64,000 nt of DNA from Nitrosopumilus sp. (lineage in GTDB: Archaea; Thermoproteota; Nitrososphaeria; Nitrososphaerales; Nitrosopumilaceae): the NCBI GenBank assembly GCA_963662625.1, contig OY759726.1, positions 416,001 to 480,000 of the forward strand, in the 5' to 3' direction. How positions within the stretch are numbered: the stretch's first letter is position 1; each line of letters begins with the position of its first letter. The position numbers were made by a program, and so were the translations under genes. Under the pieces are notes generated by a model, which did no database searches, was not told the origin of the DNA, and saw only the letters and a program-made list of their open reading frames with translations. Positions 39,903 to 64,000 of the stretch are shown here, in pieces.

Positions 39903-41170
39903 TCCAGGTCCCTCGGGTCGGTGATCGTGCCCGTTACCGCCGACGCCGCGGCGACGAGGGGCGAGGAGAGGTACGTCTTGGACTCCACGTGCCCCATCCT
40001 TCCCGGGAAGTTCCTGTTGGTGGTGCTGATGCAGACCTCGTCCTTTGCCAGCACCCCCATGTGCGCGCCGCAGCACGCGCCGCATGTGGGCGGGCCCACC
40101 GTCGCGCCCGCGTCCAGGAAGACCCGGAGCAGCCCGTTCTCCATGGCGCGCCTGTAGATCGATATCGCGGCCGGGAGGATCTCTGTCCTGATCCTCACCT
40201 TCCTTCCCTTGAGCACCCTCGCGGCAGCCTCCAGGTCCTCGTACTTGGCGCCAGTGCAGGATCCTATGTACGACTTGTCCAGCTCCACGGACCCTACCTC
40301 CCTGACCACGGCGGTGTTCTCCGGCGAGAACGGCTTGGCGACCACCGGCTCCATCTCGGCCCCCTCGTACTCCAGGGTCTCGGAGTACCCGGCGTCGGCG
40401 TCCCCGTGCACCGGCCGCATGCCCGAGGCGCCCCTGGATGCCAGGTAGTCCTCGACCTTCCGGTCCGGCTCCACTATGCCGTTCTTGGCGCCGGCCTCGG
40501 TGGTCATGTTGCACAGCGTCAGCCTCCCCTCCACTGACATCTCCTCGATGCCCGTCCCGCCGAACTGCATGGCCCTGTAGGCGCCGCCGTCCGTGCCTAT
40601 GTCGCCGATTATCCTCAGGATGAGGTCCTTTGCCATCACGTGGTCCGGCAGCCTGCCGTTGAGCTTGAAATACGCCGTCTCGGGCACCCTGAACCAGATC
40701 TCCCCGTTCAGCAGCACGTACGCGATGTCAGTGTGGCCCAGGCCGCACGCGAACGCGCCCAGCGCCCCGGTGGTGTTCGTGTGCGAGTCCCCTCCGACGT
40801 AGACGTCGCCCGGGAGCACCATTGCCTCCTCGTGGGACAGCGTGTGGCAGATCCCGTACTGGCCCATGCCGTACTTGAAGTGCCTCTCAATCCCGTAGTC
40901 CCTGGCAAAGTTCTGCAGCTTCACGATGTTCTCGGCAGAGATCTTCTCGGCCGACGGGACGAAGTGGTCCTCGGCCACCCACACCCTCGAGGGATCCCAC
41001 AGCCTGTCTGTGGCGATCCCCTGCTCCCTTAGCTTGTCGAACACCTTGATCACCCCCGGGCCCGACACATCGTGGACCATCACCTTGTCCACCTTGGCAA
41101 ACACCACGTCGCCGGGATCCACGCGGTCCCGCCCCGAGGCCCGCGCGAGGATCTTCTCCACTATGTTCAT
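39899..41170 (-). CDS. Archaeal-type IPMI/homoaconitase large subunit
   Basis: GDSHT, IGSCT, CGACCG, TTNRNFPGRMG. Confidence 0.9.
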   Translation of the reverse strand: MNIVEKILARASGRDRVDPGDVVFAKVDKVMVHDVSGPGVIKVFDKLREQGIATDRLWDPSRVWVAEDHFVPSAEKISAENIVKLQNFARDYGIERHFKYGMGQYGICHTLSHEEAMVLPGDVYVGGDSHTNTTGALGAFACGLGHTDIAYVLLNGEIWFRVPETAYFKLNGRLPDHVMAKDLILRIIGDIGTDGGAYRAMQFGGTGIEEMSVEGRLTLCNMTTEAGAKNGIVEPDRKVEDYLASRGASGMRPVHGDADAGYSETLEYEGAEMEPVVAKPFSPENTAVVREVGSVELDKSYIGSCTGAKYEDLEAAARVLKGRKVRIRTEILPAAISIYRRAMENGLLRVFLDAGATVGPPTCGACCGAHMGVLAKDEVCISTTNRNFPGRMGHVESKTYLSSPLVAAASAVTGTITDPRDLD

Positions 41171-41214
41171 AACCGAGAAGGCCAGTCCTGTGGATTAAAA
41201 GCTTTTCAGGGGCA

Positions 41215-42782
41215 GTAGCTGTATGAGGTCACGCGTGCTGACCCTTTAACCAGCAAGGCGCGATCACGCTGATCCTTACTGCAGGGGGTGCCAGTGCGTG
41301 CGTGGCAAGGCGCAGAACGACCAGGCAGCCGGGGGGCCTGCTGGCACTCGCGCCCGGCGATATCGACTCACTCAAGTCAAAATACGGGGAGGCGGTGGCA
41401 GAGAACAAGAGGCTCCAGGCCCGCCCCGCTTACTGCGGGAACGCCCACTCCCCGCCGTCGGCCAAGTCGCCGGGACGGGAGGAAGCCAGGCGGGCGAGGA
41501 GGAAGGCCCGGAGGGCGGCGGCGGAGGGCGGCGGCGCCCCCGCGGGGAGGCCCGGCGGGCAGCCGGGGCACCGCGGGGCGTCCCGCAGGCACGCGCCTGG
41601 ACGCACGGTGCGCCACGGGTTCAAGGGGGGCGTCCCGCCAGAATGCGGCCGGTGCGGCCGCGGGACCGTGCCGGGCAGGCCCGTCACGCGGGACATCCCG
41701 GGCTTCGAGGTTACCGTGACGGAGACGCGCCGCGCCGCCCGGGCCGACATCGGCCTCGAATGATTTCGATTCGATGCTCGCGGTTACCGTGACGGAGACG
41801 CGCCGCGCCGCCCGGGCCGCCGCGTGCCCCAAGTGCGGCAGGGGGCACGTGGCGCCAAGCGGCCTCCCGGCGCGCGGGGGCCGCGGCAAGAACACGGCGG
41901 CCGCGGCGGCCGCGGCGGCCGCGCTGCGCCACGCGGCCGTCCCGTTCGGGAAGACAGCGGGTGCCGTGCGGGAGATCACCGGGGCGAGGATCGCGAAATC
42001 TGCGGCCATAAACGTGGCGGGGCGCGCCCGCGGCGCGATGCGCGGGCAGTTCCGGGACATCGCGGGCCGCGCCGGGAGGCCCGAGAGGGCCGGGGCCGAT
42101 GAGACGCGCGCCAGCCTGGCGGGAGAGGGCGGGCGGGCGCGGGTCACCCGGTCCGGCAGGAACGCCGTGACCGTGCACGGCCGGAACAGGGGGCCGCGGG
42201 TGCCAGGCAGGCACGTGGACTGGTACCGCGGGACCGCCGCGCCCGGCAGGCCCTCCGCGCACGGGAGGTCCGGTACGGGCGGGCGCCGCCGGCCGTGCCG
42301 GTCCCGCGGGCTGCGGTAGCTGCGGCACGCGGCGGAGAGGAAGGGGGCGGCGCCGCGCGCCGGGGTGCCGCGCCGGCGGGCGTCCGGCGCGTGCGCCGGG
42401 GCGCTGGCGGCCGCCGCCTCGGGCAGGCACTCGGCGCGCCTGCGCCGCGCCTCCGGGTCTGGGATGCGCAGGCTGCCGTTCGGGCACGGGGACGCCGGGG
42501 GCACCGCGCCTGCCCCCCTGGCGGGCAGGCTGCAGGCGCCGCCGCCCCGCCCGTCCGCGTTCCCGGGGCACGGGGGGGCGGGCCCACGGACAGCGCCCCC
42601 GGGCGCGGCCTGCGGCACATGGCGGTGTCCCGAAAGACAGGCGGCCAGACCAAGGGCGGGAAGCCCTGGAGGGACAGGCGGTCCCGCTCCATGGCGTGCA
42701 TGATCACGTGGGAGAGGCACGGGAAATCCCTGTCAGGCGGGGTACCCAAGACAGTGTAGGGGTGGTGACCTCGTACCACCAC
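41215..42782 (+). mobile_element. Degenerate IS66-family (single-ORF type) element
   Basis: Fragments NAHSPPS, PGGQPGHRG, CGRCG, CPKCG, ADET across broken frames; imperfect TIRs GTAGCTGTATGAGGTCAC / GTGGTGGTACGAGGTCAC (14 of 18 match). Confidence 0.75.
41709..41819. repeat. Perfect 38-bp direct repeat flanking a 35-bp insertion
   Basis: GGTTACCGTGACGGAGACGCGCCGCGCCGCCCGGGCCG at 41709-41746 and 41782-41819. Confidence 0.92.
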
Positions 42783-42824
42783 CTGCGCTTAAAAGGTTAA
42801 ATAAAAAAGCCCGGTTGCTGTACC

Positions 42825-43049
42825 ATGGACGAGGTTCCAATCACCGGCAACCAGCAGTGCCTGGAGGACGCCATATTCCGGGAGGACAAAAAATACGTCG
42901 GGGAGTGGGTGCTGATTGTCGACGAGAGGGTGGCGTACCACGGGCCTGACGGGGACGAGCTGCTGGCCGAGGTGAGGAAGGCCCAGAAACGCGGCGTCTC
43001 CCCGCTGGTGCATTATGTCGGGGACGAGCACGACGCATTCCTGCTGTGA
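42825..43049 (+). CDS. DUF5678-like small protein
   Basis: KYVGEWVLIVDERVAYHG pattern; precedes an aspartyl protease. Confidence 0.7.
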   Translation: MDEVPITGNQQCLEDAIFREDKKYVGEWVLIVDERVAYHGPDGDELLAEVRKAQKRGVSPLVHYVGDEHDAFLL

Positions 43050-43059
43050 GGCCCGCGCC

Positions 43060-43473
43060 ATGTCTGCCACATTCAGGTACATTCCTTTGACTTACGGCGA
43101 CCAACGTCTGAGGAGGCCTGCATTGGAGGTACGGCTTACCCACAAGTACAGCATCAACATTCACGCATACGTGGACAGCGGCGCATCGCACACATTTGTC
43201 CCACAAAGGTACGCAAAACTTGCCGGGCTTTTAGATGAAGGCAACGCAGTGAAGGTTCAACATATTGAGGGATCATACGAGGCCAGGATGGTAGCTGTCA
43301 GGTCAATGGAGATAATGCGGGGCCAGGAAGTGTTTGAGAACATGCGTGGCCAGACGGTGCTGGTTGGAGAGAGCGACATCCAATTCTGCATTCTTGGCCG
43401 GAATTCGGTCTTTAGGTATTTTGACATCACTTTCTCTGAAAAGCGCAGGAGGGTTACGCTGACCCGTGTTTAG
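43060..43473 (+). CDS. Retropepsin-like single-domain aspartyl protease
   Basis: RP...AYVDSGASHT and ILGRNSVF motifs; lower GC than core. Confidence 0.8.
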   Translation: MSATFRYIPLTYGDQRLRRPALEVRLTHKYSINIHAYVDSGASHTFVPQRYAKLAGLLDEGNAVKVQHIEGSYEARMVAVRSMEIMRGQEVFENMRGQTVLVGESDIQFCILGRNSVFRYFDITFSEKRRRVTLTRV

Positions 43474-43861
43474 TGGAGACGTCAGTATTTGGCGGAACGG
43501 GCTGGCCGCTGGCGGCGCAGGCATTCCGGGGCGCATGAAGGGTCCGGCCTGTCCTGGCAGGTCCGGCGGGGCGCCGCTTGGGGAGCCCCTGCTTCGGCTT
43601 GCGTGCGGGGGTTTTTTGCGGGCTTTGTGCTGCCGGGCCGCCCCCGCAGCCGTCTGCAAACTCTTCCTTGCTTATGTTGGCATACCGCAGTATGGAAAAC
43701 AGGGGTTTGATCCTCAGTTTTTTGTTCCCTGCGGGCACAACTGTGACTTCACTTCCCCTTCTTAGCGTTGCGTGGATTCCTTTCCTGCGGGTCACGGCAA
43801 ATCCCCTGCCTTGCAGGTATCTTGTCATTTGATTGCCGGATATTCTTGGGAACTTTGGCAT
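43454..43861 (-). CDS. hicA: HicA family toxin (aberrant 3' extension)
   Basis: ISGNQMTRYL..GF....KGIH...VVP....L....L.SIL..A; low-complexity tail after ~aa 70. Confidence 0.7.
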   Translation of the reverse strand: MPKFPRISGNQMTRYLQGRGFAVTRRKGIHATLRRGSEVTVVPAGNKKLRIKPLFSILRYANISKEEFADGCGGGPAAQSPQKTPARKPKQGLPKRRPAGPARTGRTLHAPRNACAASGQPVPPNTDVSTKHGSA

Positions 43862-47591: not shown

Positions 47592-47770
47592 CCCGTGAAG
47601 ATGGTGCCGGAAAGATCGCTTTTGAATTGAGGTCGCGTCCCCTGTTGTGGTGCAGCCCCACTCCCCGTGAAGATGGGGCCGGAAAGATCGCTTTCGAACC
47701 CGATAGGCGCAAGTGGGTCAGCAGGTGTTTTTTGCCCGTGAAGATGGGGCCGGAAAGATCGCTTTTGAAC
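47592..47770 (+). CRISPR. Orphan CRISPR-like mini-array (3 repeats, 2 spacers)
   Basis: 36-bp repeat CCCGTGAAGATGGGGCCGGAAAGATCGCTTTTGAAC at 47592, 47664, 47735 (0-2 mismatches); spacers 36 and 35 bp; no cas genes in window; orientation uncertain. Confidence 0.55.
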
Positions 47771-61979: not shown

Positions 61980-62095
61980 GCCGGGGTAGCTCAGCCTGGT
62001 TAGAGTGCCAGTTCGCATGGTAAACTCTGCCGGTTCTTCCATAGAAGGCAACACTCATAATCTGGAGGTCGTGGGTTCGAAACCCACCCCCGGCA
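61980..62095 (+). tRNA. Elongator tRNA-Met(CAT) with 41-nt intron at non-canonical position 30/31
   Basis: Removing 62012-62052 gives CCAGA-CTCATAA-TCTGG; GCCGGGG/CCCCGGC acceptor; relaxed BHB with central helix TGCC/GGCA. Confidence 0.85.
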
Positions 62096-62153: not shown

Positions 62154-64000
62154 CTACCTCCCAAGGTAGAGCAGCCATTCCACGGGGGCCAGGCCGACCC
62201 TGACGTAGTGGACGGAGCCCGGCTCCGGGTCCACTATGGCCGGCAGCCACGGCACCTCGACGCCGCCGGGGCCGGCGTACGCGTATTCCGTGGGGGCGTA
62301 CCCGCGGAGATCCGGCAGCACCGCAAAGTCTGACGGGACGATGTCCCGCATCTCGAGGGCGCCGCCGGGGCCCGTCTCCGCCACCGCGTCCCCGGAGGCG
62401 TACGTGTGGACCGCGACCCGCAGGCCCCCGGCGCCCGCCTCCCCGGCGTCGCGGGCGCCGTCCAGGTCGGCGTCCAGGTACGCCTCGAGGCGCAGGGTGA
62501 CCATCCCGTCCGGCGGGACTGGGTAGAGCCCCAGGTCAAACGTGGCGCCGGACCCCCCGGGGGGGCTCGCCAGGACGGACCACCCGGGGGGGTCCGCCGC
62601 CACGTGGCCCGGCGGGAGCGGCCCGGTCTGCACCAGCGTGGAGGCCGGGCCCGGGTCGAGCCCCGCGAACCTGTACTGCCCGCCGGCGTCCGTGACGGCG
62701 GCCATCGCCGGGGCGCCGGGCCGGAGGGCGAGCATCACGTGCCCGGCGACGCCCCCCTCGCCCGGATCCCGCACGCCGTCGCCGTCGGCGTCGCGGAACA
62801 CCGTCCCCGAGACCGCGGCCGCGGCTCCCGCCGCGCCGCCCGCCACCCTGACGGCCACCGCCCCCTCGTTGCCCTCCCCGACGCCGAACCCGTCCGCCCT
62901 GACGGTGACCTCGTAGGAGCCCTTCTCGTACGGGAGGGACTTTAGCTGGAGGATCCTGCCCCCGGGCCCGCCCATCTGGAACAGGTCCCCGTCGCCCCCG
63001 GGCACGACGGCGTATGACGCCTGGCGCCTGTCGAGGGCGGGGCTCTGCACCGTGATGGTGGTGACGTCGGCCCGGCCGGGGGCGGGGACGGCGTGGCCCG
63101 GCACGACCAGCCAGCTTCCGAGGTTCTGGCCGGAGTCGGCCCCCTCGAACATCCCCTCCATGTCCGTCACGCTTGACACGTCCCAGGGGCCCAGGGGCTG
63201 GTCGAAGGAGGCCGCTCCCGAGAACATCCAGCTCATGTCCGTCACGCTTGACACGTCCCAGGAGTCCAGGGGCTGGTCGAAGGAGTCCGCGTCCGAGAAC
63301 ATCGCCCTCATGTCCGTCACGCCAGACACGTCCCAGGAGTCCAGGGGCTGGTCGAAGGGGGTATGGCCGAACATGCCGGACATGTCGGTGACGCTCGAGA
63401 CGTCCCAGGAGTCCAGGGGCTGGTCGAAGGAGGCGTTATGAGCGAACATCCTCTCCATGTCCGTCACGTTTGACACGTCCCAGGATGAGAGGGGCTGGTT
63501 GAAGGGGGTATGGCCGAACATGCCGGACATGTCGGTGACGCTCGAGACGTCCCAGGAGTCCAAGGGCTGGTCGAAGGAGAAGCCGAACATGTAGGACATG
63601 TCGGTGACCGACGACACGTCCCAGTGGGCGAGGGGGTGGTTGAAGGGGGTTATTGAGAACATGAAGGACATGTCGGTGACCGACGACACGTCCCAGGAGC
63701 CGAGGGGCTGGTCGAAGGCACGGGCAAAATTGAACATGTCGGACATGTCCGTCACGCCGGAGACGTCCCAGGAGCCGAGGGGCTGGTTGAATTCCCATGC
63801 ATTTCTGAACATCCCGGACATGTCGGTGACGCTGGAGACGTCCCAGGAGCCGAGGGGCTGGTTGAATTCCCATGCTTCTCTGAACATCCCGGACATGTCG
63901 GTGACGCTTGAGACGTCCCAGGAGCCGAGGGGCTGGTTGAAGTGGAAGCCGGTGTCGGAGAACATCCCGGACATGTCGGTGACGCTTGAGACGTCCCAGG
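62154..64000 (-). CDS. DUF285/BspA-like repeat surface protein with C-terminal SdrD B-like domains (5' end beyond window)
   Basis: Repeated F[ND]QPL.SWDVS.VTDM..MF units; GTVFRDADGDG and AYLDADLDG units. Confidence 0.9.
   Translation of the reverse strand, partial: WDVSSVTDMSGMFSDTGFHFNQPLGSWDVSSVTDMSGMFREAWEFNQPLGSWDVSSVTDMSGMFRNAWEFNQPLGSWDVSGVTDMSDMFNFARAFDQPLGSWDVSSVTDMSFMFSITPFNHPLAHWDVSSVTDMSYMFGFSFDQPLDSWDVSSVTDMSGMFGHTPFNQPLSSWDVSNVTDMERMFAHNASFDQPLDSWDVSSVTDMSGMFGHTPFDQPLDSWDVSGVTDMRAMFSDADSFDQPLDSWDVSSVTDMSWMFSGAASFDQPLGPWDVSSVTDMEGMFEGADSGQNLGSWLVVPGHAVPAPGRADVTTITVQSPALDRRQASYAVVPGGDGDLFQMGGPGGRILQLKSLPYEKGSYEVTVRADGFGVGEGNEGAVAVRVAGGAAGAAAAVSGTVFRDADGDGVRDPGEGGVAGHVMLALRPGAPAMAAVTDAGGQYRFAGLDPGPASTLVQTGPLPPGHVAADPPGWSVLASPPGGSGATFDLGLYPVPPDGMVTLRLEAYLDADLDGARDAGEAGAGGLRVAVHTYASGDAVAETGPGGALEMRDIVPSDFAVLPDLRGYAPTEYAYAGPGGVEVPWLPAIVDPEPGSVHYVRVGLAPVEWLLYLGR
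63150..64000 (-). repeat. Tandem ~69-75-bp coding repeats (DUF285), about 12 copies in window
   Basis: acgtcccagga...ggggctggt[tc]gaa...aacat...catgtc units. Confidence 0.9.

Follow-up and report, generated by a model that had tools for sequence, protein, structure and literature searches.

Positions 41221-42776 (+ strand) of the window, by which we mean the whole 64,000-nt stretch analyzed here (G000:C1:416001-480000, from a genome of one contig, 1,858,698 bp, 63.4% G+C), hold a decayed copy of an IS66-like element that carries an insertion. A blastn search of the genome with window positions 41000-43600 revealed that this element of about 1.5 kb is present in many copies, with at least six paralogs at 80-97% identity. 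The description as IS66-like rests on PF03050 (DDE_Tnp_IS66), which matched a 456-aa frame of one paralog (L008:540-1910) with 37.2 bits at a cut-off of 23.1; a second paralog (L009) reached only 20.8 bits and remained under that cut-off. The six open reading frames of the window copy gave no Pfam match, and the copy is therefore regarded as decayed. At least one further frame break is present in it near 42319.

Within this copy, a 38-bp segment of IS66-like coding sequence at 41709-41746 (VTVTETRRAARA) recurs at 41782-41819 with 38 of 38 positions matching (GGTTACC...GGGCCG), and the two copies enclose a spacer-like insert of 35 nt at 41747-41781. When one mismatch is allowed, the repeat grows to 42 nt (41705-41746 versus 41778-41819). 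The insert has a G+C content of 51%, compared with 82% in the 38-mer repeat and 63.4% in the genome, where the insert occurs once and the 38-mer exactly twice. Compared with the adjoining 35 nt, it is 29% identical on the upstream and 31% on the downstream side, which is chance level, and it is thus unrelated to its flanks. In translation, an N-terminal transposase fragment (41302-41763, + strand) passes through copy 1 as ...FEVTVTETRRAARA-DIGLE-stop and ends at an in-frame TGA (41761-41763) inside the insert. The transposase frame is continued at 41783-42319 (+ strand), where it begins in copy 2 as VTVTETRRAARAAACPKCGRGH... and matches the paralog ...VTETRHAVQTAVCPKCGRGHVAPSG; it is shifted by +1, as 73 equals 24 x 3 + 1. 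The first-pass annotation had described a perfect 38-bp duplication around a 35-mer of lower G+C content that adds a stop and a frameshift, and all of these features were confirmed.

The six IS copies that cover the insertion site were aligned to the window copy. All six lack exactly these 73 nt and contain the 38-mer once, and therefore represent the empty site for which other IS66 copies were to be inspected. None of them has a counterpart of the 35-mer, so that an insert ancestral to the IS, one of the circumstances that would have overturned the earlier reading, does not apply. Substitutions specific to the window copy are common to both of its 38-mers and missing in the paralogs, which makes the duplication younger than the divergence of the IS copies. 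Three short-read runs from one study contain parts of the window; stretches without cover, as well as the small share of words from run X3, were not used. Unitigs of the other two runs, X1 (record 2, depth 2) and X2 (record 12, depth 25), cover 41717-41811 with no differences, a span made up of the complete insert and 30 nt of each repeat copy. Both junctions are thus spanned by short-read unitigs; reads that fail to span the structure had been named as a refuting condition. As X1 and X2 come from one study and may include the source sample, they do not constitute independent support. A contig of run X3 skips 41708-41782 but shows seven other differences and is probably a paralog.

The genome contains a single CRISPR array, at 1683977-1693742, with 135 perfect 36-nt repeats, 134 spacers of 34-40 nt (mean 36.6) and hence a period of 70-76 nt. 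It is flanked on one side by cas2 and the gene for a 554-aa Cas4g/Cas1g fusion and on the other side by cas7g, csb2, cas3g and cas8g. The genes cas8g/csx17, cas3g, csb2 (cas5-6), csb1 (cas7g), cas4g/cas1g and cas2 all scored above the NCBIfam/Pfam cut-offs, the fusion with 727.6 bits for NF049935 (cut-off 560), Cas2 with 63 bits for PF09827 and the type I-G genes with 462.8, 703.9, 149.9 and 98.6 bits for TIGR04113, TIGR02621, TIGR02165 and TIGR02570, respectively. With the full gene set beside the array, the system can be attributed to type I-G. PF01867 found one match in the genome, which is the sole Cas1 homologue and lies within the cas operon. The D/ExK residues and the four cysteines of the Cas4 domain are invariant over four orthologues, as are many positions of Cas1. 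Judged from open frames and conserved residues only, the adaptation module is predicted to be intact; its activity is inferred. A comparison of sizes with true arrays and a search for cas1 had been suggested beforehand, and the genome offers a single type I-G array (36-nt repeats, 34-40-nt spacers) together with a single Cas4/Cas1-Cas2 module.

To place the unit in its genomic context, the whole genome was scanned for isolated, non-tandem direct repeats with at least 31 of 34 positions matching, at each period from 40 to 160 nt. This genome-wide scan, also envisaged in the first-pass annotation, returned 23 pairs at periods of 69-75 nt versus 10 at the other 114 periods. Two entries were dropped, one at 1083416 (a tandem repeat whose repeat measures 56 nt) and one at 1368692 (a 75-nt protein repeat), and two at 1478675 and 1479016, which the isolation filter had removed (distance between them 341 bp), were added. 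The final set comprises 23 events with a period of 69-74 nt (mean 71.96, sd 1.37) in the 1.86-Mb genome, and 18 of the 23 repeat pairs are perfect. Their repeats measure 34-42 nt (mean 37.1) and their inserts 31-38 nt (mean 34.8). Like the 38 + 35 + 38 nt of the unit in the IS66-like element, they combine a spacer-length insert with a repeat-length duplication, and their 69-74 nt compare with the 70-76 nt of the array. The inserts all differ from one another and have neither a common sequence nor terminal repeats. The duplications vary in length, as opposed to the strict 36 nt of the array repeat, and chance extension accounts for only part of this spread. A looser scan yielded about seven more candidates with two or three mismatches or an indel, which suggests that such events accumulated over time.

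Gene context was assessed with a heuristic based on open reading frames and GC1/2/3, without a gene call. By the ORF and GC3 values, 13 of the 23 events are intergenic, in the sense of lying outside coding-like frames, and about three lie in IS-like sequence. In four events the overlap with a coding-like frame is limited to 53 nt or less at its start or end, and six, the IS-like ones included, are located in frames of atypical composition. None of the 23 was found by this heuristic in the middle of a typical gene. This placement looks like the outcome of purifying selection and not like that of a device aimed at mobile elements, and the suggestion that the insertions serve to inactivate mobile elements finds no support. 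Measuring open frames after removal of the units was also tried and proved uninformative, as spurious long frames abound at 63% G+C. Around two clusters of events (395-396 kb and 1478-1482 kb), Pfam searches of the ORFs detected SMC and PIN genes and nothing that would explain the clustering.

For 10 of the 23 inserts, a donor of 28-37 nt is observed elsewhere in the same genome, at 100% identity in seven cases and with one mismatch in three. Among the 134 array spacers only two have such self donors (Fisher P = 3e-8), and a search of all of them against the genome with up to five substitutions revealed no self matches beyond these two exact ones. The contrast fits autoimmunity that purges self spacers from the array alone. 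If self spacers killed the cell when placed in the array but did no harm in a unit without crRNA, an excess of self donors among ectopic inserts would be expected. TTN stands directly 5' (on one strand) of 4 of the 10 self donors versus 7-11% in random controls (P = 0.003-0.02), and is absent from the other six. The two self-matching array spacers show TGA and GGC at the place of the PAM, not TTN. According to the available part of a study on Geobacter, TTN is the PAM selected by a type I-U/I-G Cas4/1 (PMC6547450). The native PAM is not derivable here since a megablast of the whole array against phage and plasmid collections gave no match.

The donors are unevenly distributed. Three of the 11 single-locus donors fall within 5.7 kb (837999-843614), beside cdc6/orc1 and the PolD small subunit, and five of the 11 within 88 kb; another donor is a multi-copy IS481-like gene. 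The region 837999-843614 is likely a replication origin, an assignment that relies only on cdc6/orc1 being next to PolD, and the cumulative GC skew of the genome defines no origin. In Pyrococcus furiosus, most new spacers are chromosomal, with hotspots at OriC and at active transposase genes, as far as the accessible text of the source goes (PMC5737086). The donor of the insert in the window could not be identified. The 35-mer has no self match in the genome (blastn-short), and its 24-nt core has no exact match in viral, metagenome and genome contig collections, so that the search for a source proposed in the first-pass annotation gave nothing. The cores of three other non-self inserts were likewise without a match in viral contigs.

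Little can be said about how the target sites are chosen. The first duplicated base is G at 29 of the 46 ends, read on either strand, versus a background of 31% (P = 9e-6). The likeness of the 23 sites to the leader plus repeat was not above random or GC-matched controls (z = 1.2-1.4), and no enrichment of hairpins was found in the repeats relative to GC-matched 34-42-mers (mean z = -0.13). At 7 of 20 junctions, the match to the donor does not stop at the insert but continues for 2-4 nt in the repeat, where about 1.4 such junctions would be expected by chance (post hoc P = 3e-4). The geometry would permit base pairing between the 3' end of the prespacer and the flank next to the bond under attack, which at present is only an idea; the same microhomology could also be compatible with a replicative template switch.

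The Cas4g/Cas1g fusion scored above the cut-off in 4 of 41 genomes searched, the present one included, and the events were counted in samples from two relatives. A genome of the same genus (G002; 481,722 bp sampled), whose 36-nt repeat differs from the native one by four substitutions and has a period of 73, contains five isolated events at 72-75 nt and four at other periods. In a genome of another genus (G016; 400 kb sampled), with a 36-nt repeat only two substitutions from the native one, no event was detected at 69-75 nt and six at other periods. At the density of the present genome 4.9 events would have been expected (P = 0.007), so that the trait is one of this genus rather than of type I-G carriers in general; at the same time, G016 acts as a negative control for the scan. 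Ectopic sites were also compared with same-genus genomes, where the flanking genes were only 67-71% identical or gave no match. At this level of identity intergenic sites are not comparable.

A second locus in the window, at 47592-47769, had been noted as having the same geometry as the unit at 41709-41819. This holds for its dimensions, and the locus is in fact a mini-array of three 35-nt repeats (with one to two mismatches) and two spacers of 37 and 36 nt, the repeat of which resembles the native one: it shows a hairpin plus GGCCCCAT, and ATGGGGCCG is common to both. No further copies of this repeat and no self match of its spacers were found in the genome. Instead of a neo-array, the locus may represent the relic of an array. 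As a separate observation, an Rfam scan of the window and L001 at gathering thresholds revealed three tRNAs, one of which matched over 116 nt, and no CRISPR family, and the archaeal SSU model matched in the genome at full length with 1456 bits, which identifies the organism as archaeal.

We attribute the 73 extra bases to off-target full-site spacer integration by the type I-G Cas4/1-Cas2 of this genome, with a probability of about 0.9. Empty sites in six of six paralogs and a cas1-cas2 module in the same genome are what off-target integration calls for, and the first-pass annotation's central inference, that an integrase with CRISPR geometry had acted on a non-CRISPR site, is supported, the tests it named having come out in its favor. 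In the proposed course of events a prespacer of about 35 nt, for which no source was found, would be captured, and its two 3'-OH ends would attack opposite strands of the IS66-like pseudogene about 36-38 bp apart, a spacing equal to that which the complex normally bridges on a single 36-bp CRISPR repeat. Each target strand would remain joined to one side of the spacer, and gap filling would copy the target, giving target-spacer-target. There is no experimental evidence that Cas1 made these events; its catalysis, like the order of the steps, is inferred. The same applies to the absence of crRNA function: the unit lacks a CRISPR repeat and is therefore probably not processed into crRNA. We propose that the unit is a neutral scar, its host element being decayed in other respects too, and the best reading of the event is as a natural counterpart of the "neo-CRISPR" events produced in the laboratory.

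Several other origins have to be weighed against this assignment. In microhomology-mediated template switching, a polymerase would copy about 35 nt at a distant place and return upstream, thereby duplicating about 37 nt; the 10 of 23 inserts templated from elsewhere in the genome and the 7 of 20 junctions at which donor identity goes on for 2-4 nt within the repeat speak for such a process. It gives no reason, however, why lengths of 31-38 and 34-42 nt should always add up to the array period of 69-74 nt, nor does it agree with donors that are hundreds of kb distant and on either strand, with the enrichment of TTN beside them or with the 13 of 23 inserts that have no template in the genome, and we consider it very improbable. 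A second possibility is an unknown agent other than Cas1, either an integrase or a mobile element, that duplicates about 36 bp of its target. It cannot be dismissed outright as long as no direct link to Cas1 has been demonstrated and the target sites are unlike the CRISPR repeat. Against it stand inserts that have no sequence in common, lack terminal repeats and offer no room for a gene, and lengths of insert and duplication equal to those of the sole CRISPR array. The insert in the window, with 35 nt, no terminal ends and no genes, is not what a transposon or casposon between its target duplications would look like, and we know of no mobile element that makes duplications of about 36 bp around such inserts; an agent of this kind is thus scarcely credible.

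The remaining explanations concern the unit in the window itself and carry next to no weight. Two short words, ACATC and TCGA, are shared by the insert and the sequence upstream of copy 1, as might be left by a 73-bp tandem duplication of the ancestral IS with a diverged middle. A middle cannot have diverged alone between perfect flanking repeats, though, and this origin is ruled out by the chance-level identity of the insert to its flanks (29% and 31%) and by the lack of a 35-mer counterpart in six of six paralogs. That the structure arose in assembly or polishing is hardly conceivable: only one assembly of the genome was available and the supporting runs stem from one study, but unitigs of two runs traverse repeat, insert and repeat (41717-41811) without a difference, and an independent, fragmented congener assembly has five events of like shape. 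A true CRISPR array that decayed in place would share the geometry of a repeat-spacer-repeat unit. The "repeat" of the unit in the window is, however, transposase coding sequence that is unlike the native repeat and unlike leader plus repeat, and the six paralogs carrying a single target copy refute this last possibility.

Off-target Cas1-Cas2 integration was previously known from E. coli overproducing the enzymes and from in vitro work, and its natural occurrence, its frequency and whether it founds new CRISPR loci had been left open. With at least 23 fixed natural events and at least five in a congener, the question becomes countable. On this reading, the events reveal what the integrase takes up in the absence of selection against self-targeting, provide data on target sites and junctions for a Cas4/1 fusion from an archaeon, and show Cas1 as an enzyme that mutates the genome of its own host. 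The misfires, about two dozen in number, would record the ways in which CRISPR-like loci and insertion mutations come about in nature. A wider hypothesis, which we put forward tentatively and with somewhat more doubt than conviction, is that in this archaeal genus the type I-G module writes spacers chromosome-wide, and does so often enough to be a real source of insertion mutations, the scars being a fossil record of unselected adaptation and maybe the seeds of arrays. If this were true, the record would keep self DNA, PAM-less donors and hot spots near the origin and in transposons, spacers of a kind that true arrays lose through autoimmunity. With its three repeats, the mini-array at 47.6 kb would then be a candidate for an array grown from a scar, and the preference for G at the attacked base together with the pairing of 2-4 nt between prespacer and flank would hint at how sites are chosen without a leader.

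The closest known case is E. coli overproducing the type I-E Cas1-Cas2, in which rare off-target integration and neo-CRISPR loci have been described, as related in the accessible parts of four papers on the work of Nivala, Shipman & Church 2018 (10.1101/148544, PMC6698737, PMC7054753, PMC9456107). The events were favored near IHF-like motifs, as far as the available section of one of these goes (PMC9456107), and evidence for natural off-target integration is termed only "circumstantial" in the accessible portion of another, where it concerns two other species (10.1101/148544). The events described here resemble those in E. coli in having a spacer-length insert and a repeat-length duplication at a non-CRISPR site in a cell with Cas1-Cas2. 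They differ in that at least 23 of them are fixed in a wild archaeal genome, the enzyme is the Cas4/1 fusion of type I-G and the sites revealed no leader-like motif. To our knowledge, Archaea are not expected to have IHF. In vitro, full-site off-target integration at non-CRISPR DNA has also been reported for Cas1-Cas2 of Pyrococcus furiosus, in the part of the source available (PMC6698737). According to that part, the off-target sites share repeat features, whereas here the similarity to leader plus repeat was not above control.

With the type I-G (formerly I-U) Cas4/1-Cas2 of Geobacter sulfurreducens, as far as the accessible text describes it (PMC6547450), the present system has in common the NF049935 family, TTN at 4 of 10 donors and an array-like spacer length. 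It departs from canonical adaptation there, within the same limits of the source, in that the site is not a leader-proximal repeat, 6 of 10 donors are without TTN and self DNA is retained. The term "ectopic spacer acquisition" has been used for Streptococcus thermophilus and S. mutans for acquisition away from the leader-proximal repeat (PMC7999890, PMC5338259, PMC8265633, each in its available part). These acquisitions, as there described, took place at true repeats inside the array, whereas ours lie elsewhere in the genome. With the target duplications of IS elements and casposons the units share the principle that a staggered cut and fill-in duplicate the target. Those duplications are about 2-15 bp long and surround a whole element with ends and genes; here, 34-42 bp are duplicated around an anonymous piece of 31-38 nt. 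In the literature searched, which did not extend to subscription papers and supplements, no report of a whole series of these events in a wild genome was found. As far as we have seen, the mechanism is of a known kind, and what is new is its natural scale, its archaeal type I-G setting and its self-derived record.

Exact matches to the chromosome were found for 2 of the 134 spacers of the native type I-G array (genome 1683977-1693742). These are spacers 113 and 132, counted from the low-coordinate end of the array, with chromosomal matches at 837999-838035 and 1799688-1799725, respectively; TTN was absent at the expected PAM place in both. Three self-donors, which supply one array spacer and two ectopic inserts, are clustered at genome 837999-843614, outside the window. 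This donor cluster adjoins cdc6/orc1 (839461-840684) and the gene for the PolD small subunit, with 1.2 kb of DNA at 49.5% G+C upstream. The region is likely a replication origin as well as a hot spot of spacer uptake. Among the 20 donor junctions of the genome's 10 self-derived ectopic events, 7 showed identity between insert and donor that extended into the duplicated target by 2-4 nt, and some of the self-derived inserts carried 1-3 end bases that are absent from the donor.

The ectopic events themselves also cluster. Downstream of an SMC gene, a span of 3.3 kb holds three of them (genome 1478675, 1479016 and 1481869), and a span of 1.1 kb without a Pfam match holds two others (395288 and 396382). 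Pfam searches of the surrounding open reading frames revealed no cause for the clustering at either place, and both clusters may simply be stretches free of selection. A probable older ectopic event was located at genome 480573-480686, 573 nt past the end of the window, where a repeat roughly 36 nt long (2 mismatches) recurs with a period of 72 nt and contains a G+C-rich hairpin. In the same-genus relative G002 (42% G+C), of which 481,722 bp were sampled, five repeat-insert-repeat units were detected (loci L067:314, L070:1866, L076:9697, L089:4767 and L092:12973), with repeats of 36-39 nt and a period of 72-75 nt.

Long runs of periodic coding repeats of 75 nt (25 aa) occur at window 63147-64000 and at many other loci (e.g., genome 110871-111939 and 1434617-1436238). 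Recurring sequence words are shared from locus to locus. The runs resemble an extensive family of repeat surface proteins, and they were by necessity filtered out of the genome repeat scan. A short way downstream of the IS66-like copy lies a 152-aa plus-strand frame (window 43015-43473) with a match of 32 bits to PF13975, an aspartyl protease domain of the retroviral type. Introns are common in archaeal tRNAs, and the 116-nt length of the plus-strand tRNA match at window 61980-62095 suggests that this gene contains one.

The mini-array at window 47592-47769 consists of three 35-nt repeats, differing by 1-2 mismatches, and two spacers of 37 and 36 nt. Neither a second locus resembling it nor a self match for its spacers was found in the genome. 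The locus may represent either a relic array or a neo-array used twice. On the minus strand, its repeat carries a short hairpin followed by GGCCCCAT, and the native type I-G repeat likewise combines a short hairpin with GGCCCCAT.
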